Assembly (NCBI GenBank): GCA_902761035.1
Contig: CACWIW010000006.1
Coordinates: 14,462-78,461 of the forward strand
Direction: 5' to 3'
Length of the DNA stretch: 64,000 nt
Origin: an uncultured bacterium
GTDB lineage: Bacteria > Verrucomicrobiota > Kiritimatiellia > RFP12 > UBA1067
The position numbers and the translations under genes are program-made. The notes beneath the pieces are model-generated. The model did no database searches, was not told where the DNA came from, and saw only the letters and a program-made list of their open reading frames with translations. Of the stretch, positions 43,831 to 62,778 are shown in pieces (within the stretch, counting starts at the first letter, position 1; each line of letters starts with the position of its first letter).

Positions 43831-43832
43831 TC

Positions 43833-44954: not shown

Positions 44955-45008
44955 TTCATCGTACCTTTCTTTTGAGGGTGATTCTGGGGTTACGGCCGCA
45001 ATCGTTTC

Positions 45009-46466: not shown

Positions 46467-46491
46467 GGTACGTCACTTATCCGAATATGTG
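46467..46491. promoter_or_regulatory. Second copy of the operator-like palindrome (cacttatccgaatatgtg variant)
   Basis: ggtacgtcacttatccgaatatgtg. Confidence 0.4.
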
Positions 46492-46591
46492 ACGACGATA
46501 TTAGGAACCGCATCCGCATCTATCCTTTTCTGCAACTGTTCCCTGTGAGGGGAATCGACTACAGTGCATGAATGGGAAAAACCTTCGACGT

Positions 46592-47611: not shown

Positions 47612-47760
47612 GATGCTTCTCCTTCCATTAAAGCGTGGACTTGTATTCACATCCGCCGCCTTCAACCCATCAACAAACCTTCCAACTTCAACCATCTCTC
47701 ACCATCCAACCCGCCCACAAACCTTACAACCATCTCTTATCATCCCTTTTTGTCAAAACA
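47612..47760. repeat. ppd 5' fragment + promoter unit 1 (junction unit), with 23-bp perfect palindrome caaaacaggtcagacctgttttg
   Basis: acatccgccgccttcaacccatcaacaaaccttccaacttcaaccat (= MVEVGRFVDGLKAADV) followed by ctctcaccat...; the palindrome is at about 47750-47772. Confidence 0.7.
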
Positions 47761-47762
47761 GG

Positions 47763-47981
47763 TCAGACCTGTTTTGACATGGTGCCTCCTGCCTCGTCTC
47801 TGTCAAGTGTCCATGGCACGATGATGCGTCCACGCGCCGCATAGATGGGCCGCAACCGCTCTTGCAGCATGACCAGCTGCCGTACCTTCTCGGGATACGA
47901 CAAGGCCGCCTGACTCGCCCTGAAAGTCTCCTTGGCGTACTGCCTCTCGCTCAGAGGTCGCATTTTCACTGCAACTGCCAT
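47763..47981 (-). CDS. Small protein, possible antitoxin partner of the downstream NTase-like gene
   Basis: 72 aa. It overlaps the downstream ORF by 16 nt. There is no recognisable motif. Confidence 0.3.
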   Translation of the reverse strand: MAVAVKMRPLSERQYAKETFRASQAALSYPEKVRQLVMLQERLRPIYAARGRIIVPWTLDRDEAGGTMSKQV

Positions 47982-48472
47982 TTGTCAAACCTCTCTTTCA
48001 AGTTGAAGGTTGAGAGCAAACCCAGAAACTGCGACTCGGAAAACCCCCTGCTCAACTGAAGCATCTGCACGCGCAATTTGTCCTTGAGCCGCCCGGTTTT
48101 GACGCATATCGCCGCCAGATATTCGGCCAACATGACTTTTGTCTCAACACCTTCGTAGTCGAATGACCGCGCCTGAACAAGTGCTTCCTGCAGCAGAGCA
48201 TCATAGGCAGGAAGGAATTGAACCGGCGTTCCTTCAATGTTTATACATTCTTTTTCATACTCATCCGGCAGATATCCCCATTCTTTCAGCTTGCCGTAGA
48301 CAGGCGAAAGCGGCGCCAAGTCGGAATCATCAGGGAAAAGAACAAATATATCAAGATCCATCGTCGTGACGGTCTCAACATAAAACATGGCACCCATCGC
48401 ACCACCAATGGCATAGTCATCAATGACCTTTTCGCGCACCAGGCGATTCAAGACTTCAAGCGTCTTTTTCAT
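47966..48472 (-). CDS. Nucleotidyltransferase-fold protein (MNT/AbiEii-like), putative toxin
   Basis: YAIGGAMGAMFYVETVTTMDLDIFVLF fits the hG[GS]x(9-13)DhD Pol-beta-superfamily NTase signature. Confidence 0.4.
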   Translation of the reverse strand: MKKTLEVLNRLVREKVIDDYAIGGAMGAMFYVETVTTMDLDIFVLFPDDSDLAPLSPVYGKLKEWGYLPDEYEKECINIEGTPVQFLPAYDALLQEALVQARSFDYEGVETKVMLAEYLAAICVKTGRLKDKLRVQMLQLSRGFSESQFLGLLSTFNLKERFDKWQLQ

Positions 48473-48528
48473 ACCATAAGCCTTTCACACCATGCTCTGC
48501 GTGCGTGGGGACTAAAGTGATGCTCAAA

Positions 48529-48700
48529 GGGTCTGACCCCATTGGTGAAGTAGAAGTGGTGGAGTAGTTTTTTTCACAACACAGGTGTCGGTCACATACG
48601 CGCAGAAGCCCTTCAGCAGCGAATCCGGCACGCCAGCGAAGAACTCCACGCCAGAATCATTCAAACAATCAACAAATCTCTTAACTTCTACCATACCATC
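48529..48700. repeat. Junction unit 2: GGGTCTGACCCC palindrome + conserved linker + ppd 5' fragment (MVEVKRFVDCLNDSGVEFFAGVPDSLLKGFCAYVTDTCVVKK)
   Basis: gggtctgaccccattggtgaagtagaagtggtggagtagttttttt cacaacacaggtgtcggtcacatacgcgcagaagcccttcagcagcgaatccggcacgcc.... Confidence 0.75.
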
Positions 48701-48814
48701 AACCCTTCAGCGCCATTGTCGCAATCCAATCTGCCCCAAATGAACCAAATCATACCAACGACTGGTGGACATAACTTCGCAATTATAATATAAGAAATAG
48801 CATTTAAGCACACA

Positions 48815-51385
48815 TCAATCTGTAATTCTCGTCAAAACTGAGACTTGTTCAATCTCATTCAATATTTCTGTGTGAGGCTGTACTTTGGCTGCTATCTCTG
48901 CATAAATATCCGCATTTAATGCTTCAGAAACCTCGTATGTGACAAATAAAGCATATTTCACCGGCTCCACAATCGCTGCAGCATTCTGGCGGCAATTAAC
49001 CTTAACCGTTACATTTTCTGTATCAACAACTGCAATAGCACGTTCATTTACAAAAACTTCATGTTGCACTGTCCCTCGCTTTACCTTTCGATAATCCACT
49101 TCTGTTCGCACACCAATACTACTATCATCAAGGATATTAAACCACAGTTTTGCATTTCGATACTTTCTATTAGTTGTCGTTACAGGTGTCAACCACGCCA
49201 ATGTTACAGTAAACTTCTTATAGCCACGAAATGAATTGACAGAAGGTGGGAGCGGAAAAACGTATGTATGCGCTTTATTATTTTTTAATTGCCCATATCC
49301 AATAAGAGTTACTCGATGATCGCTACATTCAAGTACTCGACTAATGCAACTCAGCCCATAGCCAATGTACTTAGCTATTTTCTTTCGTCCTACTTCGTCC
49401 TTATCATTTAAGCCCAACTTGTCCCCTAGATTACTTCTAATGTCATCCCAACCGGAAGAATGAACAACCATCGCTTTAAGAAGGCATGCTATATATTTAT
49501 CAAACTCTTCCCTTCCAATTCTATTAAGCAGGACATCATACAGCGCTACATATCCTCGACAACAATTGTGTGTTATCAAAGCTGCAGAACAACTGGTTCC
49601 GCGAAAATAACATGTCCTATTCAATTCACCGGGGGCACCTGGACAAGCAACCTTTATCCCTGGAGCACCGCTCGTATTACAAATATTGTATTCGACAAAA
49701 TCAGGCCCACAAGAGCCACTGCCATATAATTGCCGACCGCCATCCATAACTACATCTGGTTTAACGGATCGATTATACCCATCCCCAACAGAAGTTATAG
49801 GACTTGGCATTACTTGTTCAAATGGATTATGTCTATATCCTAGCACAAACTCGGAACAACTATCATTATGAATTGAACCAACAGTAATCGCATTTACAGA
49901 CTCCGCAGGCGAAAGTAACCTTCTATTACGCAAATTTGAATTAATGAATCTGAAGAATAACACCTCTTGCGTTCTCCGATCTTTTGATTCAAATTCCCTT
50001 GCCCCAAGATTAAGCGTTATTTTATCAGCATGATTACCAGAGCTTACAATTATCAGCACATTATACTTATAACTAAGCCAGTCAATCAATCTTGCGAGCG
50101 GGCTCATATCACTAAAAAACTCGCGAGACTCATCCCCGAGTGAGAGATTAATCAGTTTTACTGTCGGTGCTGCTGGAGTTAACTGTCCCTCGCCCTCAAA
50201 AATTCGCCTAATAGCCCTGTGTAATAAATCTACAACAAATACATTTTCAGGTATTTGTTCCCGCCCGTTTTCATATTTGAATATTGGTCTGAGATATATC
50301 TTGCTATTAACTGGCGGCTCGTGTGTATTGAGATCACCATGCAACACAAGTGATGCCATCGCTGTTCCATGAATCTGGTTCTCGAATTGATAATCTTCCG
50401 CGAATTCATCTGGGTCATCTATAATTACCCTGTCCTTCAATAAAGTATGTTCAACTATAGGCAGACCGTCCAACACACCAACTATCGGTTCGGTACACAC
50501 GGCTTCAGTATCACCTGTTACCGTAGTATATGGCTCAACAAACTCCACTTCATCTCTTGTAATCACTTTATTTACGAATTGGCCACAGGGACGAACATAC
50601 ATTATCTCCTCTGCTTTTATAAACTCCGCGTCCCCAGATTCTATAATCTGGGAGACCACGCTCAATGGCATAGCTACCTTAAGAGCGTGATATTTAATTT
50701 CTTCAACACAACATGATGCTATCACCATTCCCTGAGATTCAACAACTAAGGACCTGATTCGTGATTCGGCCTCACTTCTTCTCATATTATCATTCCTATA
50801 CCACAATTCTATATCAAACCTTAGGAAGGTCTCCCCCATGTCGATTGCATGCCTCCAATCCTCCTCAATCCCCGTGTCATGCATTCTATCCTTAACACCC
50901 CAGCGTCGAACATCTTTCAACAAAATAAACAATTGCTTGAACTTTCCAAATCCATGTTCAAAGGTATAATCCGGATTCTCTTTATAATGTTTCCACAAAT
51001 TATATAACTGATCAAGTGCCGTCCTATTACTCATCATCAAATACAAACGCCCATCCGATTGCGTATCTAGTTCTTCATCGTCTTCGTTTATTCTATTTTC
51101 AACAAGCCATTCTAGCCCTTGAATTCTGGCCACACAATTATAAAATGCATCTATCTCACCTAACACCTCCAGAACCAATACCAATTCAGGTTCGACACCC
51201 ATTGCCGATTCTGCCAGATTAGCTCTTTCGGAAACAAAGTTCTCTCTAATGGCAGTTAATTTCGGAGAACAGCTATTCCAAACATCACTTACCGTCTGGC
51301 GGACTGGATGTCCATGACTCGACGGCAACGATTCGCGATCCGCCTCGCTTGGTCTTGGAAATATTAAGAGTGGCCTCTGTGGCAT
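48815..51385 (-). CDS. Subtilisin-like S8 serine peptidase (IetS-like)
   Basis: 856 aa with an S8 catalytic triad context: VGVLDGLP (Asp), HGTAMASLV (His), GTSCSAALITH (Ser). It is paired with the upstream AAA ATPase. Confidence 0.6.
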   Translation of the reverse strand: MPQRPLLIFPRPSEADRESLPSSHGHPVRQTVSDVWNSCSPKLTAIRENFVSERANLAESAMGVEPELVLVLEVLGEIDAFYNCVARIQGLEWLVENRINEDDEELDTQSDGRLYLMMSNRTALDQLYNLWKHYKENPDYTFEHGFGKFKQLFILLKDVRRWGVKDRMHDTGIEEDWRHAIDMGETFLRFDIELWYRNDNMRRSEAESRIRSLVVESQGMVIASCCVEEIKYHALKVAMPLSVVSQIIESGDAEFIKAEEIMYVRPCGQFVNKVITRDEVEFVEPYTTVTGDTEAVCTEPIVGVLDGLPIVEHTLLKDRVIIDDPDEFAEDYQFENQIHGTAMASLVLHGDLNTHEPPVNSKIYLRPIFKYENGREQIPENVFVVDLLHRAIRRIFEGEGQLTPAAPTVKLINLSLGDESREFFSDMSPLARLIDWLSYKYNVLIIVSSGNHADKITLNLGAREFESKDRRTQEVLFFRFINSNLRNRRLLSPAESVNAITVGSIHNDSCSEFVLGYRHNPFEQVMPSPITSVGDGYNRSVKPDVVMDGGRQLYGSGSCGPDFVEYNICNTSGAPGIKVACPGAPGELNRTCYFRGTSCSAALITHNCCRGYVALYDVLLNRIGREEFDKYIACLLKAMVVHSSGWDDIRSNLGDKLGLNDKDEVGRKKIAKYIGYGLSCISRVLECSDHRVTLIGYGQLKNNKAHTYVFPLPPSVNSFRGYKKFTVTLAWLTPVTTTNRKYRNAKLWFNILDDSSIGVRTEVDYRKVKRGTVQHEVFVNERAIAVVDTENVTVKVNCRQNAAAIVEPVKYALFVTYEVSEALNADIYAEIAAKVQPHTEILNEIEQVSVLTRITD

Positions 51386-51391
51386 AACATT

Positions 51392-52378
51392 TTACTCTTT
51401 GTTTGACAATTCCTTGATTACATTCCTAATTGCCTTTTGTATATCTCCATTTGGCAGACTCAAGACGTATTTACGCATAACCGACAAACATACTTCCTCG
51501 AGTTCCGCATACGATAAGTATGCTCTTTTAGCCAATATCTCCTGTAATCTTGTTCCAAACACAATAGCAGACTTCCTTTCAAAACGCCTTATAAATTCAC
51601 CTATACCCCAAGTATCCGGTCCCGGTATTTCTACATGGAGCTGAAATCTCCGCCAAACGGCCCTATCAAGAAGTTCTGGATGATTAGAAGCACCAATAAT
51701 TACAACATGACTCGGCAAATCGTCAATCTTTAACAATAGCGTACTAACAACGCGTTTAACTTCACCTACATCATGTATATCTCCCCGTTCTTTCGCAATT
51801 GCATCAAATTCATCTAGGAAAAGCACACATCTTCGTGTTTTTACAAAATCAAATAAAGCGCTAATACGTGATGCTGTTTCCCCCAAATATGATGCCACTA
51901 GAGTTTCATATTTAACTGTATAAAGCGGAATCATCAGCGCTTCGGCCAAGCCTTCTGCAATAGAAGTTTTACCATTACCCGGGGCCCCAGTTAATAAAAC
52001 TCTATTTCTCGGTGCAAGCGCGTAAGATGCAAGCAAATCAGACCTCAAGTACTCATCCTTTAAATTATCGAGTTTCGTCCTAACACTATCTAAAATAACC
52101 AATTCATCCAGTCTCCTCTTAGGAATCTTTTCGTATACATATTCAGCGCCATTTTGTTTTGGAGCTAAGACAAGATTCCGCGAATAAGAATCTTCGACTT
52201 TATCAATGCCAAATCTACTTCTTTGAAGAGCTTCTTCAATAGCAAGCGCTACTACATCATGCTTCTTCGCCCTCTCTTCTGAAGCGACTGTTTCAGCAAT
52301 TCGTCGAGTTGCGATCCGATCGCCTCGCAATCCAGACTGAATCAATTTAATTATCAAATCAGATCTTGCCATTTCCAC
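51392..52378 (-). CDS. AAA+ ATPase (IetA-like)
   Basis: Walker A GAPGNGKT, Walker B VLFLDEFD, sensor-1 region IGASNHPELLD. Confidence 0.65.
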   Translation of the reverse strand: MEMARSDLIIKLIQSGLRGDRIATRRIAETVASEERAKKHDVVALAIEEALQRSRFGIDKVEDSYSRNLVLAPKQNGAEYVYEKIPKRRLDELVILDSVRTKLDNLKDEYLRSDLLASYALAPRNRVLLTGAPGNGKTSIAEGLAEALMIPLYTVKYETLVASYLGETASRISALFDFVKTRRCVLFLDEFDAIAKERGDIHDVGEVKRVVSTLLLKIDDLPSHVVIIGASNHPELLDRAVWRRFQLHVEIPGPDTWGIGEFIRRFERKSAIVFGTRLQEILAKRAYLSYAELEEVCLSVMRKYVLSLPNGDIQKAIRNVIKELSNKE

Positions 52379-52440
52379 CTCACGAATCTTTAATTATTTG
52401 TCCTGAAATAAGGCCTCGAAGTGTCCCACATGGAACTAAA

Positions 52441-52660
52441 GGGTCAGACCCTTTTGATAAAGTTCATTGATACAGTTGGTGGGACAACCGCCCTTATCCG
52501 TACAATGGCATCCGATTGAAAACTTCACCTGCACGCCTGTAAAGAACTCCACGCCCGCCGCCTTCAACCCATCAACAAACTTTCCAACTTCAACCATCTC
52601 TCACCATCATTTCAAATGCGCGGTACGTCACATATCACAATATGTGCAGCGCTCCACGCC
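52441..52660. repeat. Junction unit 3 (GGGTCAGACCC + short ppd 5' fragment + operator palindrome)
   Basis: gggtcagacccttttgat ... aaagaactccacgcccgccgccttcaacccatcaacaaactttccaacttcaaccatctctcaccatcatttcaaatgcgcggtacgtcacatatcacaatatgtg. Confidence 0.65.
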
Positions 52661-52914
52661 CGCAGCCTTCAATCCACCACCAACAAACCTGTCTCATACC
52701 TTTTGCCAAAACAGGTCAGGCCTGTATTTACACGGCAACGCATAGGCGTTCCTTCTTGTGTTCACGGGCAATCCACCGTGCGAACGCCTCTGCTTCCCTA
52801 TACAAAAACGACAGGTCAGGCGGCGGCGCATCCATTATCATTCGATAAATTTTATTGTTTTGAAGCGCCTCGTATTGTTCTTTAGTAAATACTCGCATAA
52901 TGCCTCCTTGTCAA

Positions 52915-53090
52915 TTTTATGATGTCTCAAAGGGCCCCATTGGTGGAGTAGAAGTGGTGGAGTAGCTTTTTTCACAACACAGGTGTCGGTCACACACGTG
53001 CAGAAACCCTTCAGCAGCGAATCCGGCACGCCGGCGAAGAACTCCACGCCCACCGCCTTCAACCCATCAACAAACTTTCCAACTTCAACC
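52915..53090. repeat. Junction unit 4 (degenerate palindrome + linker + ppd 5' fragment with its start codon lost)
   Basis: agggccccattggtggagtagaagtggtggagtagcttttttcacaacacaggtgtcggtcacacacgtgcag ... ttcaaccccgtgcg; the track ORF 52838..53104 is this relic. Confidence 0.7.
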
Positions 53091-53105
53091 CCGTGCGAAA
53101 ACAAT

Positions 53106-54596
53106 TCAGCCCTCTTTTCGTAGTGTCACCTTCCAAAAACCACGCGTACCGCCTTCACGGACAAGTACACCCTTTGTCTTCAATGCGGCTATCTGTTTCT
53201 CGACAGTTCTTGGCCTAACATCTAAGGTTGATGCTATCTTACGGATTGCGGTCCTTGGATTCTCGATCAATATCTCACAAATGCGACGCTGTTCATTGGG
53301 AAGACCCACAAAGGAATTGTCCCCCCTATTGCCCCCCCCATTGTCCCCCCTATTGGTTGCGGGGGCCGGGCGCCAGATGACAATGCGAAAGCGACCAGAA
53401 ACCTCCTCCAAAAGAGGTTCCCTAAGCCCCTTTGCCTTGCATTCTTTCAGTAAATCGGTAAGTCCTGTCCCAATTGTCTCGATGTACTTCACCTGATACA
53501 TGGCGCGGGCGATTCGCGGATTCGTGGCAAACGACTCGTGCTTCTTGTACAATTCGGCAACGGTTATCGCGCGGTGGATCCGTCCTGGGCTGATGACCTC
53601 CACGCGATCCGAATAGACCTCAACCTGAATGCTGCCAATGCTCGCATAGTTTCGGTGGGCGATTGCGTTGTTGACGGCCTCGGCGATCACCGTGTTCGGA
53701 ATCTCGTCCACATCGTCCGCTGCCGCGCCGTGGCTATGTACTCCGGCACCATGATTCAGGTGTCGGCTGATGAATGCTATCGCCTGGTCAGCCATCAGAA
53801 ACAGATCTCCCTCGACAAGCTCCATGTCAATGTTGGGCTTGCGCTTTTCTGTTCCTGGATAACACGCGCACTTTATAGCAGAACTGGGAAACGGTCCCTG
53901 TACGTCACGCCCGAACAGTAGCACACCTGCCTTCGTCGGCGCGTTCCGCTTAGCGTCAAACAAGTGCAATGACCGCAGGACGTCAACAACCGACGGGTTT
54001 GGTGGATATTTGGCCTGACGTATACGGACGGCTCTCTCGACAAACCAAGCGATTCGGGCCGCATCAATGTCCTCCAGCGAAGCATCGGCCAGACACTGAT
54101 CTTCGAACGGCTTCTCCGATAAAATGCCGTCGTCAAGCATGATGTCGCGAAGGCTGTTCCGCACCTCGTCCAGCAGATCGTCGACAGCCTGTTCCGGTTC
54201 CGCATCCTGATATCTGACGCGCACACGTTCTTTTGAAACCTTGTCCAAGAAGCGCGCTTCACGATCTTCTCGCTTCGAGTTGTCCGAACCTCTCACCATT
54301 ACCAGTTTCGTGAGCCCCAGTTCCCTGGCTTTGTCAAATTCTTGTTCCGTTGGAGACAATTCCCCTTCACGGCAATATCCATATCGATTTCCAATCAGGA
54401 CAAGATAGATGTCACATTTCTCGATTTCTCCCAGATAGACTTGTTGCGTGGATTTGTCCGAAGCCGGTGCATCTATCTCAAAGACAAACACAGTGAAATA
54501 TGGCTTCAGTATCGGATCGGACTCAATCATCCGCTTGATTGCAGCCCGTTCGTGCTCGAATTCCTTCTGCACACTCGATATGAATAGCCGTTTCAT
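53106..54596 (-). CDS. DUF4062 domain fused to a Schlafen/AlbA_2-like domain, HATPase_c_4 and a C-terminal winged-HTH (RecG-C-like putative regulator)
   Basis: N-terminal MKRLFISSVQKEFEHERAAI is DUF4062-like. FDAKRNAPTKAGVLLFGRD matches the AlbA_2/Schlafen core. EAVNNAIAHRNYASIGSIQVEVYSDRVEVISPG matches HATPase_c_4. The C-terminal EQRRICEILIENPRTAIRKIASTLDVRPRTVEKQIAALKTKGVL is an HTH. Confidence 0.55.
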   Translation of the reverse strand: MKRLFISSVQKEFEHERAAIKRMIESDPILKPYFTVFVFEIDAPASDKSTQQVYLGEIEKCDIYLVLIGNRYGYCREGELSPTEQEFDKARELGLTKLVMVRGSDNSKREDREARFLDKVSKERVRVRYQDAEPEQAVDDLLDEVRNSLRDIMLDDGILSEKPFEDQCLADASLEDIDAARIAWFVERAVRIRQAKYPPNPSVVDVLRSLHLFDAKRNAPTKAGVLLFGRDVQGPFPSSAIKCACYPGTEKRKPNIDMELVEGDLFLMADQAIAFISRHLNHGAGVHSHGAAADDVDEIPNTVIAEAVNNAIAHRNYASIGSIQVEVYSDRVEVISPGRIHRAITVAELYKKHESFATNPRIARAMYQVKYIETIGTGLTDLLKECKAKGLREPLLEEVSGRFRIVIWRPAPATNRGDNGGGNRGDNSFVGLPNEQRRICEILIENPRTAIRKIASTLDVRPRTVEKQIAALKTKGVLVREGGTRGFWKVTLRKEG

Positions 54597-54662
54597 GGCG
54601 ACACTACATATCCGTTCACAAAATTACCCAGACTTGGATGTTCAGTTCCCAACGGGGCTAGA

Positions 54663-54950
54663 GGGTCTGGCCCCATTGGTGGAGTAGAAGTGGGGGAGTA
54701 GCTTTTTTCACAACACAGGTGTCGGTCACACACATGCAGAAACTCTTCAGCAGCGAATCCGGCACGCCGGCGAAGAACTCCACGCCCGCCGCCTTCAACC
54801 CATCAACAAACCTTCCAACTTCAACCATCTCTCACCTTACCTCAACAATCATTTCACATGCACTGTACGTCACATATCGCAATATGTGAAGCAACGCGGC
54901 AACGCTCCGCGCCCGTGGGGTATGCAGCCGAATACCTCATTCCATTTCCG
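54663..54950. repeat. Junction unit 5 (full-length copy of ppd-B promoter + 5' fragment + junction palindrome)
   Basis: 54700-54945 is near-identical to 46112-46330, including the operator and the cgctccgcgcccgtggggtatgcagccgaatacctcattcc motif. Confidence 0.8.
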
Positions 54951-55335
54951 CATGTGCATTTCTCCGCTCATGTTTGAGCCGTATAGTATACCATTTCCCC
55001 GCTGACTTATCCACCGTTTGACCATGCTGTTGATGATTTTCTTCTGTTGTTCCGCCACATGTGCCTAACGGCCTTTATCAACTCAAAACCACATCTCGAA
55101 ACAAGAATCGCTCTAAACCCTTACGACAATACTAGTTGTTCCAGAGTTGGCAATCATCCCATGATCCGCCGCGATTTCTCGTCCTTGTCCCACATATTCT
55201 TGAACAGATTCTTGTCCTTCAGCATATCCCAGCACTAATCCATCAATACCGGCTTATACCCAGCCGCTCAATCGTTTTATAATGCCCCCGCCGCATTTTA
55301 TACCATATTCCCGTATTTTCACCTCGTCTGAAAAT

Positions 55336-55971
55336 TCATGCCGCCTCTCGGTATGTTACAGTAGCGCAATCACGACTTGAAGAAGTCACCCTGTAGATTC
55401 GCCTTACCTCTGGCAAGACCTCTGTCTTAAAACTTGCAGAGAACGCCGTCTCCAAATTGATGTGTACGGGACCACCGCCATGCCATTTCAATGCCAACAA
55501 TGCCCGATTAACTTTAAGTTCGCAATCGCGCTCCTCTTCATAAGTCCTCGGTAGCGGACACTGTACAGAAAGATTCACGATGTCAGACGGCAAATGGATA
55601 CGGTCTGTCATCTGAGGCCACATGTTCCCGATATGGGAACTGTGCTGTGAACTTGTTATAGCCAGAACCGGCAACTTGCGATAATATGCCTCGGTAAGGG
55701 CTGGCATGTAATTCCTACTGGCCGTGGCTCCTGTACAATTGATAACAACTGGCTCTCCAGATTCCTCTGCGATGCCAACAGCGAGATATCCTGCGTGCCG
55801 TTCATCGACAGCAGAATACAACTTGAAGAACGGATCGCCCTGCACACTTAAGACGAAGCAATCATTCGTCGCCCCAGGGCTTAAGATCAAATGCTTAATC
55901 CCATACGCCTTCAGCAGCGCAATCACAATCTGCGCATTCTTCTCGTCAGTGTAGTAATGCTTTCCACTCAT
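55336..55971 (-). pseudogene. TPP-enzyme N-terminal domain only (truncated MenD/ALS/ppd-like gene, or ComD-like alpha subunit)
   Basis: 211 aa: KNAQIVIALLKAYGIKHLILSPGATNDCFVL ... GPVHINL is a TPP_enzyme_N domain, and no middle or C-terminal domains follow. Its first 23 codons are duplicated at 59472-59541. Confidence 0.45.
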
Positions 55972-56322
55972 TTTCTCGCTCCGCTTTTGTTATCCGCTAG
56001 TTTTCGTACCCAAATGTTTATCATGTTGTCCGCACTTACACGACAACAGTATTCAATTTCATCCTACGATTCGGGGACAAGTCTTTAGGCTAATAGGTTG
56101 CAGACCTATTTACTCTCCTTGGCATAACATAATATAGTCCGGGGACCCTACTTCCATGATACGATTTTCATAAATGGCCACATCCTTATCACAAGATTTA
56201 TCGTTGTAAACAAAAAGACGAATTGGTCTGCCAACAACTCTACTGACTTCATCAGAGACCCCACCGTACGATGTTTTATGGATACACTCGTCCTCAATAC
56301 GAAACTACCACTCCCATATTAA

Positions 56323-56793
56323 TTACTGTTTGCTTATATATTTACATAATTTTGTCAAATCAACAAGGGCATATTCATAGGCTTCTTTTATTGCACCAAG
56401 TAACTCTGCTTTCGATTCACATTCTACCGTTTTTCCCATATACTTCAAGTTTACAGGATAACCAGTAACAGGATTTAACTCATAACCAAAAATCCTTACA
56501 CCCCTATCAAGGACATAAACAACTACTTCATCCTTCATTTGTCTTGGTACCGTTGGGTTTTTCACCATCCCTGGCAATCCAATCATCATTGAATTCTCTT
56601 GGAAATGTGATATCGTAGAGGATAGTATTTGTAAACTTGAATTGAATTGTATTGTTATATCATATTTTTCCTTGAATGCTTCTACCATTGAATCTTTAAA
56701 ATCAGAAATTGTAGATATTATTTCTCTCCTATTTGCGAGACCTATTGGTATCTTATCTAATCCTACTTTAACAAAATTGAAATCCTCTTTCAC
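56323..56793 (-). CDS. Hypothetical protein, partner of the EEP nuclease
   Basis: 156 aa with no recognisable motif. There is a 1-nt gap to the upstream EEP gene. Confidence 0.4.
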   Translation of the reverse strand: MKEDFNFVKVGLDKIPIGLANRREIISTISDFKDSMVEAFKEKYDITIQFNSSLQILSSTISHFQENSMMIGLPGMVKNPTVPRQMKDEVVVYVLDRGVRIFGYELNPVTGYPVNLKYMGKTVECESKAELLGAIKEAYEYALVDLTKLCKYISKQ

Positions 56794-56794
56794 A

Positions 56795-57589
56795 TTATGC
56801 TCCTTTCTGCCATGAAATGGTTATTCCAACAGGGCTGTGTTCACTTTTTTCTGGATTATATGTCGTTGTTCCATAAATTCTTTCAGTACAATCAAACCTA
56901 TCCAATGAAAGAAAGGAAGACGATATTAGTAAAAAATCAAACAGTGCTCTTGTACTCTTTATGTCATCCACATTTTTGCAATTCAAACTTCCCACTTCAT
57001 CATGCATCTGACGCCAAAATGGATTGAAGAATCCTCCATGTTTTTTGACAAAATCACTTGATCGACTGACATTTAATGACCGCAATGCAGGCGACCATGG
57101 CTCAACGTTAAAATCCCCCATTACTATAGCAACTGCATCCTTTAATCGCCGCTGATCATCTCCAAATGCCAATCTATTCAACTTTCCTGCTGCGGCACGT
57201 TTTCTATCATCGCTATATGGAGCATCTTTTTGATTCCAATGGACAAGAAAGACATCCAACGAGGCATATAGCGCACTAACATTAAGCCGAACTCGTTGAC
57301 AAACGCGATATTGCCCACTAACTTCTGCCGAATCTGTCTTAACAATATTCCTATCCTCTTCACCAAAACTACAATCTACCTTTATTCGAGCTGAATTATA
57401 AATAAGCATTGTCTTAAAATTTATGCGACCAGATTGATGTATAAGTGGCATGATCTTCATTTTCTTTGGGCACAATGAGCCTATTCTCTTAACTAAGTCC
57501 AAATCACCTATTTCGCCCAACCCAATGATATCATTCTCTTTAGACAACAGATTGATTGTCCGCAATACCGATGCTGTGTTACAACACAC
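56795..57589 (-). CDS. Endonuclease/exonuclease/phosphatase (EEP) family protein
   Basis: VAIVMGDFNVEPWSPAL (EEP catalytic DFN motif) and an H-containing C-terminal motif. Confidence 0.55.
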   Translation of the reverse strand: MCCNTASVLRTINLLSKENDIIGLGEIGDLDLVKRIGSLCPKKMKIMPLIHQSGRINFKTMLIYNSARIKVDCSFGEEDRNIVKTDSAEVSGQYRVCQRVRLNVSALYASLDVFLVHWNQKDAPYSDDRKRAAAGKLNRLAFGDDQRRLKDAVAIVMGDFNVEPWSPALRSLNVSRSSDFVKKHGGFFNPFWRQMHDEVGSLNCKNVDDIKSTRALFDFLLISSSFLSLDRFDCTERIYGTTTYNPEKSEHSPVGITISWQKGA

Positions 57590-57722
57590 ATCACCACCAT
57601 AGGGACTAAGGCTCGTATTCCACCAAGCGATAGAAAGCGATCCTCCCTTTCTAGGTTTACCTATACACGACTCGTTAATAACAGAAAACCCTTTAAGATT
57701 TTATGCCAAGGCCTCCATGAGG

Positions 57723-58142
57723 TTAGACCCCATTGACGCAAACACTGGCGTTAATTCGATCTAGGGGGATTGTTAGGACGTGCCTCACAGCCCATTCACC
57801 AATTGGATAGCCAATTGCCAGCAAGACAATTGGGAACACAGTCTCGATTGTCAGCGCAGTGTTGAACCACCGTCTACTTTCCTCAAGGGCGGCCTCCTTA
57901 TCATTGGCGGCCATAGCCTGTCCAATTGATATCGCGTAAAACCTAGTAGCCCCTCCAACAACGACGCTGTTGAAAAAGCCGATGAAACCTATCAGACATC
58001 CAACAGCTCCCAATAACCCATAGTCCACTTCGCCTAGCGCCATCAGTATCCACCGTCCGCAAAACAACCCGATTATAAGCGCATACAGGCTCCGCCCATA
58101 TGTGGCTATAATGTTCAGAAATATTCTACGATTCGGAGACAT
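57723..58142 (-). pseudogene. Wzx flippase N-terminal fragment (remnant)
   Basis: The 139 aa (ATYGRSLYALIIGLFCGRWILMALGEVDYGLLGAVGCLIGFIGFFNSVVVGGATRFYAISIGQ) match the first 3-4 TM helices of Polysacc_synt/Wzx. The reading frame ends at the junction palindrome at 57720. Confidence 0.55.
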
Positions 58143-58208
58143 GGCTGTTATTTCTCAAAGATCAATGGCGTTTGACCAATCGTTGTAATTAACCCAATCA
58201 CTTCATTA

Positions 58209-59336
58209 TTATCCATTAGAATCGGCTTTAGGCGGTTGATTTCGCACAGTTGACACCGCATTCGCTAATTTTGCTACACAGTCAGCTACTTCGGACAATG
58301 GGGTTTGTGTTTTAACCTTATCAAGTGTCGAATTCGGATTCGAGCAAAGCACCCTAATCGTTTTTGACATCAAATCCTCGCTCAATTCTTTAGCACTTGA
58401 CACACCCTTATTCGCAAGCTCTTCTACCTGTTTTGCCATTCCAGTATATGTCTGCGCAACAACTACCTTATGGGCATATTCTTCCATTAATCGCCTATCT
58501 TGATTCATCAACTTATTTAGATGACACGTTAACCAAAATAGTGGCAGCACAAGCGGAGCTTTGCTCAACATGGCTTTTACAATCTTACCCCATAGGTCAT
58601 CACCAACTATTGATCCAACAGAAGAAACTGCGCACGAACCAATTATGCAAAACCCAATCAAACAGGCATAAAAGGAAATTCGTTCAAATATATACCTATT
58701 ACCTATCGACTTACGTTTCTCCTCAAATTGTGAACTCAATGTAGCAACTGTAGCCGTTGCCAACATGTCCTTCAACTTGCCCTGAAGCTCCTCGCAAGTG
58801 CTCTTGTTTTCTTCGATGAATTTCTTCAATGAATTAACAGCATTAGTCTGGCACTTTAAGGAGAATGTTTCAATTGATCTTTCTGCATCTTCTATTTTCT
58901 TGTCTACTTTGTCATGCAGATCATCAGAGGCTTTACGCAACTCATCCAAATCGGCATCTTCTCGCTGCCGTTCTTGCATCCAAGATTCTTTAGTTGATTG
59001 TAGTTTCGTCTCAAACTCACTAATGCTGCGCTCACAACGACCAAGCCTTTCAGCTAGTTCTTTGCTTTTGGTAAGGTCACTTACCAGATTACTCAAAGCA
59101 TCTGATGAATGCGCCGCCAAGTTATTATTTCCAGATGGGGTAAGAGATCTGGATGCGTTCCCTACTGCAGCTGAGGCAGCTCGCATTGCTACTAAGAACT
59201 GCTTCTGCAACTCTGGCGATACACCATTAAATGTCTTCAGCAGCGATTCCTCCGGCTCAATACCCAAGGCATCTCTGAGCCGCTGTTTTGCATCTGCATT
59301 TATCGCATTCTGGACTACTGGATTTGAACTCTTCAA
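58209..59336 (-). CDS. Coiled-coil membrane protein (2 TM), unknown function
   Basis: 375 aa with an N-terminal coiled coil of about 190 aa, two hydrophobic helices (ISFYACLIGFCIIGSCAVSSVGSIV; APLVLPLFWLTCHL) and a C-terminal soluble region. Confidence 0.45.
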   Translation of the reverse strand: MKSSNPVVQNAINADAKQRLRDALGIEPEESLLKTFNGVSPELQKQFLVAMRAASAAVGNASRSLTPSGNNNLAAHSSDALSNLVSDLTKSKELAERLGRCERSISEFETKLQSTKESWMQERQREDADLDELRKASDDLHDKVDKKIEDAERSIETFSLKCQTNAVNSLKKFIEENKSTCEELQGKLKDMLATATVATLSSQFEEKRKSIGNRYIFERISFYACLIGFCIIGSCAVSSVGSIVGDDLWGKIVKAMLSKAPLVLPLFWLTCHLNKLMNQDRRLMEEYAHKVVVAQTYTGMAKQVEELANKGVSSAKELSEDLMSKTIRVLCSNPNSTLDKVKTQTPLSEVADCVAKLANAVSTVRNQPPKADSNG

Positions 59337-59471
59337 TTTGTTTGATCCTCACTGTCGCGTTCCATAAACTTCACCCGTCTCTTTATGTTCTTTAAGTATT
59401 ATTCGCATACATGTCCTCCCGTTTTATTTGCCGCAAATTATACCATTTATCTTCTCTCTACAAGCCGCACC

Positions 59472-59541
59472 ATGCGTCTTCAGCAACGCAATCACAATCT
59501 GCGCATTCGTCTCGTCTGTGTAGCAATGTTTTCCACTCATA
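59472..59541 (-). repeat. Duplicated 5' fragment (23 codons) of the TPP-N gene at 55336..55971
   Basis: atgagtggaaaacattgctacacagacgagacgaatgcgcagattgtgattgcgttgctgaag is about 90% identical to 55902-55971. Confidence 0.75.
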
Positions 59542-59673
59542 CAACCACTCTCCTCATGTCAAGGCTTCGCGCCATAACACAATGTTTCCAACCCTTTCCT
59601 TTAAGTAACGCAACTGATAAATCTATGTCATGTACAATCATGCACAATCCTACGACACCGTCATATCAGAACG

Positions 59674-60162
59674 TCAACTTGACGATTCGGAAGATTCTGA
59701 ATTCCGTATCTCCGCATATTCATGTGCCTTTTCCAATAAATCTATACTCTCAAGAGAATGCGCAGATGAAGATAATATCGGATATGTTGAAAGCACAAAA
59801 GTTGCAAGCCCAGAATGCTGTCTTTCTTTATAGATGGAAACCACTTTATTTATAACATTCCTGATCTGTTCGGGAATGTCTTCTGGAGGGCGAATCAAAC
59901 ACCGCACCTCTTGATTTACATCATCCACCTCAAATTCTTGTTTTGAAGATCTAAGATATGATTCCAACCCTTCGTCCGCCAAACCATGTCGAAATACTTT
60001 CCATTGAACATCGACCACACGACAATTGTATTTAATGCAGGAATGCCAATCACATAGATAAACCAATAACAACAAGGTTATTTGGTCGACCCGATTACTT
60101 CCTGTCGCCGCACTTATAAGTACGGAAACAAATTGACCAAGTTGTATTTTTTCGCTGTCCAT
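59674..60162 (-). CDS. Hypothetical protein (first of a two-gene cassette)
   Basis: 162 aa with no recognisable motif. It is separated from the upstream gene by 1 nt. Confidence 0.4.
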   Translation of the reverse strand: MDSEKIQLGQFVSVLISAATGSNRVDQITLLLLVYLCDWHSCIKYNCRVVDVQWKVFRHGLADEGLESYLRSSKQEFEVDDVNQEVRCLIRPPEDIPEQIRNVINKVVSIYKERQHSGLATFVLSTYPILSSSAHSLESIDLLEKAHEYAEIRNSESSESSS

Positions 60163-60163
60163 G

Positions 60164-61024
60164 TTAAAACTCCTCCAATTCTTTTACCTTGTCCGGCGAC
60201 GGGATATAGTCTTTAAATGCATGGATAACAGCTCCGAGTTTCTGGCAACTAGGCTTTACGATCTTTTCTATTTCCGCATCATCTCTGCCACCAATCCCTT
60301 TTATCAATGAAGCGATAACAATAATGGCAAGATGTTCCCCCTTACAATCAATCCGAGTTCCCCAATATGTCCGTCCATGAAATTTAATACTCTGTATATC
60401 ATCCGCTGATAAATTATAAACTTTTTTACAATATGATTCATACTCTCGCTTCCCCTTCTTTCCATTGGAGATTTTAGGGAATTTATCATCATATAACTTT
60501 CCTTCATCCCAAATCTTCTTGAACATTTTTGCTAATGGTCTCATTCGACAACTTTTCTTTTCATATTCGAGATTAGTTGAACATCTTTCACAACAGAAAT
60601 ATTGTTGCGCATCCCCATTGCCCTGTACAAGGTAGAGAGATATTCTGTCACTGTTGCCCAAATCTAGTTCACTACGAAGGCTCTCCAATATGCCATGAAG
60701 CGCGGATGGAACAACTTTCTCCATCGTGGATATTTTACCTTGGAATTCTTCTACTTTATCCCTTAATCCATCGTTCTCATCTGATAACTTTGTCACACTT
60801 TTCTTCGTGATATGAGAAATTAGAACACGAACTACTACTAGTATAATAATCATTCCAAAGGCGCTCCATGCAACGGCTCGCCCATAAGACATATTAACAC
60901 TATCTGGGAGAAGCGCACCACGAACCTCTGAAGACAGAAACAACGGAGAAACCACGACCAAACCTTCATATACAATACGAAGAGGTATTGCATATTTCTC
61001 TATCCACATTATAAAAGTTTTCAT
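60164..61024 (-). CDS. Membrane-anchored (2 TM) protein with a Cys-rich globular domain, unknown function
   Basis: The start is taken at MKTFIMWIEKY because the longer track ORF runs into the junction palindrome. It has two N-terminal TM helices, a coiled coil and a CCERC...C region. Confidence 0.45.
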   Translation of the reverse strand: MKTFIMWIEKYAIPLRIVYEGLVVVSPLFLSSEVRGALLPDSVNMSYGRAVAWSAFGMIIILVVVRVLISHITKKSVTKLSDENDGLRDKVEEFQGKISTMEKVVPSALHGILESLRSELDLGNSDRISLYLVQGNGDAQQYFCCERCSTNLEYEKKSCRMRPLAKMFKKIWDEGKLYDDKFPKISNGKKGKREYESYCKKVYNLSADDIQSIKFHGRTYWGTRIDCKGEHLAIIVIASLIKGIGGRDDAEIEKIVKPSCQKLGAVIHAFKDYIPSPDKVKELEEF

Positions 61025-61047
61025 ACTAAACCTTTGGCGGACGGATA

Positions 61048-61068
61048 CTATGGGGTCAGACCCCATAG
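61048..61068. repeat. Perfect 21-bp palindrome CTATGGGGTC-A-GACCCCATAG (junction site)
   Basis: Seen directly in the sequence. The same GGGGTCAGACCCC core occurs at 48529, 52441, 54663, 57720 and 61422. Confidence 0.85.
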
Positions 61069-61286
61069 TAAGAATCAGCGAAGTATGTTCAACCATCTTA
61101 ACGCGAATACCTTCTTGCCGCCCACTTCACAACTTCCAGCGGCACTGTCTTCCGTTCGCGCGGAAACGCAGACTTCTCGCTTTTCGACACCTTGGTGACG
61201 AAGTTTGCCGATCCAATTATACCACCCGACGTGAAGAGCGCATCTTCCCGATCTTCCTGTTCCGCCATGTCTGCGTCCATCCTGAT

Positions 61287-61400
61287 CCGCAACTGCCCGC
61301 CGCCTTCAACCCATCAATGAATCTTACAACACCAACCATTTCTCGACATCATTTCATCTGCGCGGCACGTCACTTATGCGAATATGTGCAAGGTTGGGAT
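61287..61400. repeat. Junction unit 6 (short ppd 5' fragment + operator)
   Basis: ccgccgccttcaacccatcaatgaatcttacaacaccaaccat ... cgcggcacgtcacttatgcgaatatgtg. Confidence 0.65.
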
Positions 61401-61421
61401 GGAGACGTGGAGGGGCTCAAA

Positions 61422-61650
61422 GGGTCTGACCCCATTGGTGGAGTAGAAGTGGTGGAGTAGCTTTTTCACAACACAGGTGTCGGTCACACACGTGCAGAAA
61501 CTCTTCAGCAACGAATCCGGCACACCGGCGAAGAACTCCACGCCCGCAGCCTTCAACCCATCAATGAATCTTCCAACTTCAACAATCTCTCACCATCATT
61601 TCACATGCGCGGTACGTCACTTATTTGAATATGTGCAGCCGCTCATGTTT
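61422..61650. repeat. Junction unit 7 (palindrome + linker + ppd 5' fragment + operator)
   Basis: gggtctgaccccattggtggagtagaagtggtggagtagctttttcacaacacaggtgtcggtcacacacgtgcagaaactcttcagcaacgaatccggcacacc ... ggtacgtcacttatttgaatatgtg; the track ORF 61374..61556 is this relic. Confidence 0.75.
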
Positions 61651-61669: not shown

Positions 61670-62110
61670 TTATGCCAACAAAGGATGCTTTTGGTCTTTC
61701 GGCGACAGAATCAATGGGACGCCAATATCCGGCCATTTGACTTCAAGAACCGGATCGTCGAATCGCATTCCACGGTCGGACGCGGGGCAATAGAGATTGT
61801 CACACTTGTAACTGAACAGCGTATTGTCCTCCAGGACGATGAAGCCATGCGCGAACCCGCGAGGAATGTAGAACTGCTTTCTGTTCTCGCCTGTCAGCGT
61901 GACTACTACGTGCTTTCCAAAGGTTGACGAGCCTTTCCGGATGTCGACAACCACATCCCAGACCGCGCCCTGAATCACCCTCACCAGTTTAGCCTGGGTG
62001 TGCGGCGCGGCTTGCCAATGGAGTCCTCTCACAACGTCCTTCGACGTAGGGCCGGGATTGAAAACGTCTTTGTGCAGGACAACAAAAGTTTCTCGTCTTA
62101 CGTCCCCACT
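61670..62110 (-). pseudogene. rmlC: dTDP-4-dehydrorhamnose 3,5-epimerase (rmlC), 5'-truncated
   Basis: VVRGLHWQ...AKLVRVIQGAVWDVVVDIRKGSSTFGKHV...FYIPRGFAHGF is the RmlC cupin. The frame is open upstream to a TAG stop at about 62127-62129, with no Met codon. It encodes SGDVRRETFVV, corresponding to RmlC residues about 20-30. The first 20 or so codons are absent, and the region overlaps the 3' end of the RloB-like gene. Confidence 0.6.
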
Positions 62111-62778
62111 TCCGCTACGGATAGTTGCCTACTGATGAAATCAAACAATGGGGCGACCTTTGGCGAATTCCAATCCCAAAGATTCGGATCTAACAAACCC
62201 TTCATAATTCCTCCGCGATCCCACACAGAAGGGCCGAGTACTGCCGCCTCATAATCGTTCATCTTTGATTTCTGCGATGGCTTCTGTCCTCCATGAATCT
62301 CAAGACAGGCTTCGTACCGTCGCCAGCACTCAGCAATGAGGGAAACGTATTTTTGCGGCACAATGTCTTCAAGCAGATTCTCAAGTTCTCCGTCCCGGTT
62401 GTTATCTGGGAAGAGGAAAATATCAATGGCGTTTTTGGGCGGCGCCAGAAGCCGCCAAGTCGAAATCGCTTCCTTCAAGAACTTCGTTCGGTCGGCAACA
62501 CCACCTTTTTCCACACCTGTTTCATCTGCGTCAAATATCAGCGCAACATACAACCCGTCGCCATTTTTGTCCTCAGCAGAAGACTTTGCGCGGTCAAGTT
62601 TTGTGTACCCACCGACAGGAATTACCTCCACGCTCATCACTTCCGACCGAAGCAACACCCCGTCTACTGAACTTTCCGGAACACCAAATTCCGTGAACCC
62701 GGGGAATCTCGCGGCAAATAATGCACGAATAAAGCATGCGTCTTTCTTCCCTTCAACGAGAAATCTGACGGTTTTCAT
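62098..62778 (-). CDS. RloB-like / DUF4435 (TOPRIM-like) protein, AbiLii-like
   Basis: 226 aa. There is a 4-nt overlap with the upstream AAA_21 ATPase gene. The acidic DADETG ... DNNRDGE motifs are consistent with a TOPRIM-like fold. Confidence 0.45.
   Translation of the reverse strand: MKTVRFLVEGKKDACFIRALFAARFPGFTEFGVPESSVDGVLLRSEVMSVEVIPVGGYTKLDRAKSSAEDKNGDGLYVALIFDADETGVEKGGVADRTKFLKEAISTWRLLAPPKNAIDIFLFPDNNRDGELENLLEDIVPQKYVSLIAECWRRYEACLEIHGGQKPSQKSKMNDYEAAVLGPSVWDRGGIMKGLLDPNLWDWNSPKVAPLFDFISRQLSVAEVGT

Follow-up and report, generated by a model that had tools for sequence, protein, structure and literature searches.

A repeat of probable REP/TIR type in ppd stub modules between anti-phage cassettes of an uncultured Kiritimatiellia bacterium

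Why should one short palindrome recur between the gene cassettes of a bacterial defence island? The question is raised by 64,000 nt of DNA, here called the window, from an uncultured Kiritimatiellia bacterium (contig CACWIW010000006.1 of assembly GCA_902761035.1, positions 14,462 to 78,461). The window corresponds to metagenome contig k141_1583631 of ENA ERZ27279956, and nearly all its genes lie on the minus strand. Positions 1–46 kb encode surface-glycan and 2-aminoethylphosphonate (AEP) biosynthesis. The 46–64 kb segment lies upstream, in the direction of transcription, of an intact ppd gene (phosphonopyruvate decarboxylase), and carries co-oriented genes, among them several with matches to anti-phage defence models. 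An earlier note on this DNA took the palindrome for a recombinase core site or an attC-like site. We propose that it is instead part of a transposase-family repeat, that the repeat is carried in modules derived from ppd, and that the arrays are shuffled by recombination of these modules; we put the probability of this account as a whole at about 0.65. Its parts differ in strength. Judged by sequence comparison, the element is very probably a repeat of the repetitive extragenic palindrome (REP) or terminal inverted repeat (TIR) type, belonging to a RayT/TIRYT-like family of Y1 transposases. That the repeat at the junctions is a passenger in a duplicated ppd promoter-stub module, which separates and probably expresses the defence cassettes, with the arrays most likely shuffled by module recombination, is a more tentative proposal, to which we give slightly less than even odds. 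On that proposal, the palindrome marks junctions because the whole module does.

Within the window, the core GGGTCWGACCC has four exact matches (48529, 52441, 61053, and 61422) against 0.03 expected. The shorter GGTCWGACC has five against 0.28, the extra site being 47761, and every exact match is confined to 47.7–61.5 kb. The recurrence first reported is thus real and far above chance, although two of the reported sites, 54663 and 57720, are not exact cores. The former lies inside a full copy of the repeat described below, and its core has one mismatch (GGGTCTGGCCC). The latter is merely a 15-nt relic, CAATGGGGTC-TAACC, at the truncated end of a wzx fragment. A 29-nt linker also occurs four times (48539, 52937, 54673, and 61432; 0 expected). 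Core and linker adjoin at four places only, and the remaining palindromes have no linker. The earlier statement that the palindrome always lies at the boundary between cargo and linker holds at 48529, 54663, 61422, and, in damaged form, at 52932; it fails at 52441, 61046, 47751, and 57720. That is, three or four of the seven or eight sites join the two.

Where they adjoin, the palindrome is not a site and the linker is not its spacer. Both are one 39-nt repeat, named REP-A, with the form CTACTCCACCA-CTT-CTACTCCACCA-ATG-GGGTCAGACCC, followed by a tail of ~9 nt. REP-A consists of two 11-nt direct repeats and an 11–13-nt palindromic core, and it contains two CTAC/GTAG motifs. A phage or satellite origin was rejected, as IMG/VR has 0 exact matches to REP-A. 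The copies in the window are as follows.

48529–48567, minus strand: REP-A copy 48, core intact; the 168-aa cargo gene begins 56 nt beyond.
52932–52965, minus strand: REP-A copy 52b, linker intact, 4–5 bp lost from the palindrome; this is the fourth linker copy, absent from the earlier list of sites.
54663–54701, minus strand: REP-A copy 54, core with one mismatch (GGGGCCAGACCC); the DUF4062 gene begins 66 nt beyond.
57720–57735, minus strand: possible REP-A relic, CAATGGGGTCTAACC, at the truncated end of the wzx fragment.
61422–61460, minus strand: REP-A copy 61b, CTACTCCACCA CTT CTACTCCACCA ATG GGGTCAGACCC, core intact; it comes after a ppd stub (61461–61586) whose start codon is mutated to ATT.

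The nature of REP-A is indicated by its setting in related genomes. An exact-pattern scan for the linker–palindrome junction was made with one genome per species, and a metagenome scan then added 58 loci (loci are numbered with the prefix L). The junction was found in seven contigs of rumen metagenome-assembled genomes (MAGs) labelled Kiritimatiellae, Lentisphaerae, 'Spirochaetales', or uncultured. In four of the seven, the sequence left of the linker is not ppd but the start of a gene encoding MRQPRNFVPDRCYHLISRIANRAFYF...CNHFHIL. Locus L008 has a 361-aa open reading frame (ORF; 2715–3800) between inverted copies of CTACTCCACCACTYYTACTCCACCAATGGGGTCAGACCC, at 2651–2689 (minus) and 3803–3841 (plus), with the palindrome outermost. 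Both flanking ends carry the 39-nt sequence, inverted relative to each other and 95% identical, and they start 2–25 nt from the coding sequence. The same inverted repeat surrounds the ORF in about 10 loci (L006–L011, L016, L026, L063, and L065). Four further copies, two of them in tandem, lie near the L008 gene, making 6 copies in 8 kb.

The 361-aa ORF matches Pfam Y1_Tnp with 33 bits (cut-off 23) in the region with CNHFHIL. It also matches NCBIfam REP_Tyr_transpos (NF047646) over residues 121–191, which include YIDRNPV, with 56.2 bits, a score below the equivalog cut-off of 80 for REP-associated tyrosine transposases (RAYTs). Its C-terminus is a winged-helix (wHTH) region, and a search for a PDB relative by sequence found none. 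The same architecture is shared by at least 162 clusters (90% identity) of the family, and JGI labels members 'REP element-mobilizing transposase RayT / HxlR regulator'. Most members lie on 1–3 kb contigs, as would be expected of repeats that break assemblies, and the gene occurs in at least five flanking contexts.

Classification of 85 repeat copies from all sequences, which are fragmented MAGs and metagenome contigs, placed 38 beside the transposase gene, 15 after a ppd stub, and 32 elsewhere. Of these 38, 4 adjoin gene fragments; of the others, 23 stand at the 3′ end of the gene and share its orientation, and 11 stand at the 5′ end and are oppositely oriented. The presumed specificity for cassette junctions is therefore lost, as 70 of the 85 copies lie elsewhere, 38 of those flanking the transposase gene. 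The wider search did reveal arrays in other species that carry the element at their junctions, with most copies lying away from junctions. Tandem dimers of the repeat are found at L008 5305–5393 and L010 4605–4692. At six loci (L013, L017, L030, L036, L050, and L059), inverted REP-A pairs stand 200–480 nt apart around transposase remnants, e.g., residues 1–30 only; to judge from their sequence, these short pairs look like deletion derivatives of the miniature inverted-repeat transposable element (MITE) type. In one MAG, RUG14821, a transposase unit (L007) and a ppd-repeat module (L004) occur together. No transposase homologue was found in the window or in three arrays.

The second setting of REP-A is the start of ppd. 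The intact gene of the window is the reference.

45009–46211, minus strand: intact ppd (TIGR03297, 461 bits), repeat-free, with promoter boxes at 46250–46271 and 46470–46491.

On the coding strand, a full REP-A copy is preceded by a promoter-like box, a ribosome-binding site, and the first ~37 ppd codons. The box, TTCACA-17-TACNGT within CACATATTnnnATAnGTGACGT, is present in six copies. The modules measure 160–330 bp, and these units and shorter stubs are arranged as follows.

47650–47748, minus strand: module 47, the start of a Big_9 secreted-protein gene, to which ppd mini-stubs of about 14 codons are fused.
48568–48694, minus strand: module 48, ppd 5′ stub, a divergent allele (MVEVKRFVDCLNDSG...).
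52528–52650, minus strand: module 52a, promoter box 52625–52646 and a 19-codon ppd stub, without REP-A.
52966–53104, minus strand: module 52b, ppd 5′ stub fused to a degenerate copy of a second palindrome, Pal2 (see below), which overlaps the DUF4062 stop codon.
54702–54943, minus strand: module 54, ppd upstream region, ribosome-binding site, and ~37 ppd codons (ATG at 54828).
61295–61392, minus strand: module 61a, promoter box 61367–61388 and a 16-codon ppd stub, without REP-A.
61461–61640, minus strand: module 61b, promoter box 61614–61635 and a ppd 5′ stub.

Over 225 nt, module 54 and the upstream region of intact ppd share 93% identity; the box of the module, TTCACA-17-TACAGT, lies inside CACATATTGCGATATGTGACGT at 54867–54888. 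The stub reading frames stop just past the palindrome, giving 56-aa pseudo-ORFs at 48524–48694 and 54658–54828. Modules within the window differ from each other by 3–22%. This divergence indicates that they were not duplicated recently in place; they probably arrived with their cassettes from other strains.

Locus L045 suggests how the repeat came to lie in ppd. There, the repeat and short flanks form a 66-nt insertion in ppd, flanked by TGTG and placed between ...TD(T)C and GKNHV, after which ppd continues for 13 more codons. L060 and the intact gene, both repeat-free alleles, have uninterrupted ppd sequence at this point. Comparison of L045 with these alleles indicates that one repeat copy entered ppd. 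The in-frame stub, used as a protein query, retrieved 95 clusters, each of them a stub of 47–136 aa. Repeat-coded tails occur in at least 30 of the 95 by a strict motif match and are spread across all three reading frames. The candidate of a functional ppd with an in-frame repeat was dropped, as only stubs were found, by a word-indexed search that may miss full-length proteins. A second large class (proteins P0012–P0065) consists of 58-aa ppd stubs that end ...GAVGLAAGH and a stop, without REP-A, so that ppd has a second place at which truncation recurs. These stubs, e.g., L081 7640–7816 and 10001–10177, also serve as spacers between defence cassettes.

Two side observations concern the modules. 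A near-identical strain (L002, sample ERZ913629) differs from the window only by small indels inside repeated modules: a 90-bp segment with the second promoter box (window 46405–46494) is absent, the 72-aa ORF has a 147-bp deletion (47826–47972), and module 47 has 60 extra bp. Also, a second enzyme gene, for a thiamine diphosphate (ThDP) enzyme, shows the same stub phenomenon. Its first 24 codons (MSGKHYYTDEKNAQIVIALLKAYG) occur twice, at 55901–55971 and 59470–59540, with 90% identity; one copy is a 211-aa fragment (55336–55971) and the other a short stub.

We suggest the following sequence of events. If E. coli TnpA-REP and IS608 are a guide, the HUH domain would use the palindromic core as its hairpin or cleavage substrate. 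This function is proposed because the E. coli RAYT binds and cleaves REP in vitro (PMC5581495, Bertels et al.). On the same analogy, the two direct repeats would serve for binding, plausibly by the winged helix at the C-terminus of the transposase. One REP-A copy is likely to have entered the ppd coding region as the 66-nt, TGTG-flanked insertion. The segment of ppd promoter, about 37 codons, and REP-A may then have become a spacer module between co-oriented anti-phage cassettes, upstream of the intact, repeat-free ppd operon. The array would be built and shuffled by recombination of homologous modules among strains, a module plus cassette being excised and re-integrated at any other module, and the modules would give each cargo gene a promoter and leader. 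The outer end of REP-A is possibly also a preferred breakpoint, a candidate role suggested by the fact that homology stops there.

Module-punctuated arrays are found outside the window in L029, L060, and L079–L082. In another species (L079/L080), five repeat copies sit at five successive junctions and separate a SLFN/HATPase_c_4 gene, RhuM, an unknown gene, a 168-aa + 72-aa pair, and a 426-aa gene. Immediately downstream of this array is a glycan locus whose first gene is not ppd. The L081/L082 arrays are built with the 58-aa stubs. Cargo in other loci is often defence-like, with matches to HEC-01A, PD-T4-4_A (6e-109), PDC-S05/RhuM, and pAgo-associated-like domains. The 168-aa + 72-aa cassette has the same REP-A junction in L028 and L079 as in the window, and both it and the SLFN cassette recur with flanking repeats beside different neighbours. 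An alternative array order in the window strain was looked for and rejected: contigs with identical IetS, DUF4062, or Ppd all have the same order, with small module indels only.

The arrays also show how the repeat decays. Nine array copies, four from the window and five from L079, were identified by other means than the core; in six of them the core is mutated or deleted (L079 7843, 8608, 9189, and 10150; window 52932 and 54663). The 28-nt linker of the same nine copies has about 4 changes in 252 nt, counted by eye. Within arrays, the palindrome thus decays roughly ten times faster than the linker, which indicates that it is either not maintained there or a mutational hotspot.

All 15 unique ppd-repeat junctions have different downstream sequences, homology stopping 9–15 nt past the palindrome. 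Locus L004 gives a closer view. The part that it shares with the window runs from the end of the DUF4062 gene through the module and the repeat; a 520-aa SLFN-type gene comes next, after which L004 rejoins the window at 46398–46300. Its 1.7-kb cargo lies between CCCCTCCAC and GTCTCCATC, which are contiguous in the window at 61404–61421, the 61b/61a junction. The match at the right junction was read directly from the sequence, a MAFFT alignment being uninformative. From these sequences, L004 and the window look like the filled and the empty form of one site, which lies 15 nt from the palindrome. Constant DNA thus repeatedly gives way to variable DNA at the outer end of REP-A. This is compatible with a breakpoint hotspot, and also with a repeat that is no more than the last conserved part of the module.

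Several points weigh against our account. The link between transposase and repeat rests on comparison of sequences. The transposase does not reach the RAYT equivalog cut-off of NF047646, and the several contexts and short contigs of its gene may mean that it is an active insertion sequence (IS) rather than a domesticated RAYT. REP-A folds no better than shuffled sequence, unlike classical REPs. The 41-nt element gives −2.7 kcal/mol (z +0.15 against shuffles), and eight 101-nt windows, on both strands, give z from −1.65 to +1.82; the attC-like bulged hairpin that had been envisaged for the single strand is likewise dismissed by these values. An extended pairing of CCAATGGGG with the tail CCCCNTTGG was also considered and is strong only in copy 54 and L060, i.e., it is not general. 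Across the 15 junctions, mean pairwise identity is 0.85 in the ppd part, 0.89 in the 17-nt left flank, 0.63 in the 9-nt tail (TYTRNNCCC), and 0.30 in the next 25 nt; the value for the repeat itself, 0.95, is inflated, as most loci were retrieved by a 25-nt exact match inside it. Homologous recombination of modules does not explain why 15 unrelated cargos follow directly after the repeat tail, nor does the model explain the many repeat-free stubs (the 58-aa class and the stubs of 14–19 codons).

The boundary at the repeat tail is an argument for active capture. Here, the Y1 transposase or host nick processing would cut a single strand just past the REP-A palindrome and join foreign DNA to it, making REP-A the entry point for defence genes and yielding an integron-like array driven by the transposase. 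HUH enzymes of the IS200/IS605 family cut at a fixed short distance from a hairpin, and all 15 junctions lose homology at such a distance, with different cargo each time. The outer ends of the transposase-flanking copies behave similarly, a 9-nt tail being followed by at least five different sequences, and L004 and the window resemble a filled and an empty site. Yet no transposase gene was found in the window or the three arrays, the cargo has no conserved second end, many junctions lie on stubs without the repeat, and the palindrome is damaged in six of nine array copies that keep the linker intact. Also, the breakpoints may fall in the few ppd bases after the insertion and not in the repeat. 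We regard active capture as unlikely.

The other rivals involve further palindromes of the array, which are as follows.

47751–47779, no strand: Pal2, a 29-bp perfect palindrome, TGTCAAAACAGGTCAGACCTGTTTTGACA, followed after about 25 nt by a ppd mini-stub.
52441–52475, minus strand: REP-B, CTGTATCAA TGAA CTTTATCAA AAGGGTCTGACCC, containing a 17-bp palindrome at 52441.
52701–52735, no strand: degenerate Pal2, 86% identical to the copy at 47748–47782.
61046–61070, no strand: 25-bp perfect palindrome, TACTATGGGGTCAGACCCCATAGTA, directly after a 3-codon ppd mini-stub; it has ATGGGGTCAGACCC in common with REP-A and has no linker.

Two of these had been seen earlier in shorter form: the palindrome reported as 21 bp at 61048 is present but spans 25 bp, and that reported as 23 bp at 47750 is present but spans 29 bp and belongs to another family, Pal2, which has only a 9-bp core in common with REP-A. 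Pal2, (TGTC)AAAACAGGTCWGACCTGTTTT(GACA), has 15 copies in the sequences examined, with perfect palindromes of 21–33 bp; copies elsewhere include L045 580–600, L060 2729–2757 and 5276–5304, L079 5918 and 9965, and L081 3583, 4003, and 7497. Its outer arms vary between copies yet remain perfectly complementary, i.e., they covary. A copy of Pal2 is usually found on or after a stop codon, with a ppd start codon about 25 nt further on. Two unrelated cargo genes stop at such a TGA: the 72-aa ORF at that of the Pal2 core, and the DUF4062 gene at that of a degenerate copy, the one in module 52b. REP-B, CTGTATCAA-TGAA-CTNTATCAA-AAGGGNCNGACCC, is built like REP-A, with two CTGTATCAA direct repeats, other arms, and the same GGGNCNGACCC core. 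It has three independent copies (window 52441–52475; L081 4337–4371 and 10244–10278), and no transposase was seen beside it in the loci examined. One core in three families makes a common protein partner the obvious idea. Among 107 cores, 91 are of the G...C type, 15 of the A...T type, and 0 are hybrids; crossover at the core between REP-type and Pal2-type sites was rejected on this count. As a side observation, L081 has a REP-B-like core (AAAGTCAGACCC), 12 nt, and Pal2 with no gene between them at 3560–3600, 3980–4020, and 7470–7510, which may be an empty cassette position.

Given these families, Pal2, the ppd 5′ stub, and REP-A might together be a mobile module, a non-autonomous composite of REPIN or MITE type that spread into the gaps of an existing defence island. 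At L079 9965–10171, Pal2 stands 25 nt before the stub ATG and REP-A at the end, so that a GGTC-W-GACC core lies at both outer ends; the module, at 190–330 nt, has a size typical of a MITE, and its right end is constant. A REPIN, as defined in PMC3337134, is two REPs flanking a spacer. The left boundary, however, is very variable: it may have a promoter box, Pal2, or the two together, or lack them both, and stub length ranges from 3 to 37 codons. Pal2 is never beside the transposase gene, and all copies found lie at glycan-locus heads or in defence arrays, never in unrelated intergenic regions. We consider this composite improbable. The same low probability is given to an integrase-free cassette system, in which defence genes would be captured between REP-type and Pal2 cores, with their shared GGTC-W-GACC, either by breakage directed by hairpins or by the HUH transposase supplied in trans; the ppd module would express the captured genes, and homologous exchange would shuffle them.

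A role in transcription is quite improbable as well. The palindromes would be terminators or insulators between cassettes, or operators of a regulator, with positions set by the needs of expression. The placement of Pal2, on stop codons or right behind them and with ppd starts about 25 nt further on, would suit such a role, as would its differing but complementary outer arms, the strong folding of Pal2 and the 25-bp palindrome (z −6 to −7), and the wHTH domain of the transposase. Intrinsic terminators were nevertheless rejected, as a terminator scan picked up none of the palindromes and none is followed by a T-run. A search of 45–64 kb against Rfam at E ≤ 1 gave nothing but one chance-level match. 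REP-A, moreover, has no stable fold and is found mainly at transposase ends.

The recombinase reading can be set beside three further results. The core arms meet at a single central base (GGGTC-W-GACCC), not at a 6–8-bp central region. The boundaries read GACCC-TYTRNNCCCC, and GTTRRRY is not conserved at them. No integrase or tyrosine or serine recombinase domain was found among the genes of ~18–64 kb of the window or in arrays L079 and L081. That the palindrome is a recombinase core or an attC-like site, with cassettes swapped by crossover in it, is therefore highly improbable: a perfect, strongly over-represented short palindrome, cargo lying between an upstream REP core and, for three cassettes, a downstream Pal2 core, and a contig end at 64 kb beyond which an integrase could lie speak for it, but the one-base spacer leaves no room for staggered cuts, the domain search was negative, no core is a REP/Pal2 hybrid, the attC-like fold was not found, most copies sit at transposase ends, and in arrays the core decays faster than the linker. 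What survives of the earlier idea is that the site belongs to the world of DNA rearrangement, since in related genomes a Y1 HUH transposase gene has it as its terminal inverted repeat.

The cargo between the modules of the window consists of the following genes.

47763–48472, minus strand: the 168-aa + 72-aa pair, with no Pfam, PADLOC, or NCBIfam match; by eye only, the 168-aa protein is nucleotidyltransferase-like.
48815–51385 (IetS) and 51392–52378 (IetA), minus strand: IetA/IetS defence system (IetA and IetS, E 2e-123 and 4e-286).
53106–54596, minus strand: DUF4062/HATPase_c_4/wHTH protein.
62098–62778 and 62775–63866, minus strand: DUF3226 protein and AbiLi-like AAA ATPase, respectively.

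The cargo genes are co-oriented with the repeat and start 30–90 nt downstream of it. Beside the defence-model matches, several cargo genes of 46–64 kb have no assigned function, and glycan-gene fragments (wzx, rfbC, and the second ThDP enzyme) are interspersed among them. Elsewhere in the window, the AEP/phosphonate set is present twice, at 24336–30340 and 40121–46211, each with a PEP mutase-CTP transferase, Fe-ADH, permease, PhnW-type aminotransferase, and ppd. Between the two ppd copies, DNA identity is about 87%, and the stub array lies upstream of the second copy only. A 559-aa AIPR (abortive infection) gene (20556–22235) sits amid the glycan operon between aminotransferase and cytidylyltransferase genes, and a small gene of the 23S_rRNA_IVP family (31409–31819; 133 aa, a four-helix bundle) lies within the glycan cluster.

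In dozens of public rumen and gut metagenome contigs, ppd stubs punctuate defence arrays directly upstream of surface-glycan or phosphonate operons, with genes such as IetAS, AbiL-like, PD-T4-4, HEC-01, RhuM-like, and SLFN/HATPase_c_4. Should modules or repeats drive cassette gain, defence islands would be assembled without an integrase, and the repeat would be a sequence tag for islands and new defence genes in uncultured bacteria of the Planctomycetes–Verrucomicrobia–Chlamydiae (PVC) group. Integrase-free capture, if true, would be a second, independent bacterial route to integron-like arrays, dedicated to anti-phage genes at the heads of surface-glycan loci. If modules and repeats do not drive gain, the locus is a warning that a palindrome at 'cassette junctions' can be a passenger in a duplicated promoter and gene stub. 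REP-A would add a new member to the RAYT/TIRYT repeats, in a little-studied phylum.

Among known systems, the integron is similar in having co-oriented, promoter-proximal cassettes of one or two genes split by a recurring structured sequence. It differs in that no IntI, no attC-type bulged hairpin, and no GTTRRRY was found here, and in that the spacer here is a promoter and gene stub of 160–330 bp, not an attC. The two ~11-bp arms of Xer/dif-type sites span a 6–8-bp centre, whereas those of the core here meet at one base. Tandem accretion of integrative elements and cis-mobilizable elements (CIMEs) likewise repeats an end fragment of the target gene between units, beside the intact gene. The fragments here vary at both ends (3 to 58 codons), however, the units are of 0.5–4 kb with defence genes only, and no integrase was found in ~18–64 kb or the two arrays.

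Rickettsia palindromic elements (RPEs) are short in-gene insertions comparable to the one in ppd. REPs inside genes are also reported, in PMC3733652 (Di Nocera et al. 2013), and are likewise short repeats inserted in a coding gene, here in frame and over 66 nt. The ppd case differs from both: full-length Ppd with the insertion was not found, the 95 clusters being all stubs, with the repeat read in all three frames.

Elements of the IS200/IS605 family, e.g., IS608 with its LE and RE hairpins, share the Y1 HUH enzyme, a short hairpin near the element end, and a junction with foreign DNA a few bases off. Their ends are not mutual inverted repeats and their hairpins lie on one strand, whereas REP-A forms true inverted repeats. 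The REP/RAYT systems of Enterobacteria and Pseudomonas are alike in having a short dispersed repeat that flanks a Y1 transposase in inverted orientation, with GTAG (CTAC) present. In E. coli REP, GTAG is on the other side of the hairpin strand than in REP-A. A classical REP is an extended imperfect palindrome of 20–40 nt that folds as a hairpin with a GTAG head; REP-A is palindromic only in its 11–13-nt core and folds no better than shuffles. Its transposase misses the NCBIfam equivalog cut-off and occurs, IS-like, in several contexts.

The TIRYT systems offer a further likeness. In PMC3733652, RAYT-like genes are described in which long TIRs replace the classical GTAG REPs, the units being named 'TIRtrons' and the enzymes 'TIRYT'. 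Dispersed TIR copies are described there as moderately abundant and single, dimeric, or clustered, and some TIRs carry the motif GGGGWSAS. Here too, a Y1 HUH transposase gene lies between inverted repeats of about 40 bp, and dispersed copies are single, dimeric, or clustered, 32 of them away from transposase and ppd. The core GGGGTCAG fits GGGGWSAS, a likeness in the presence of the motif. The differences are the C-terminal winged-helix domain of the transposase, the two 11-nt direct repeats of the element, the placement of copies inside a coding-gene stub where they punctuate defence arrays, and the host, a rumen bacterium of the PVC group. The repeat is very probably of a known kind, the RAYT/TIRYT type, and is unusual in its build and its host.

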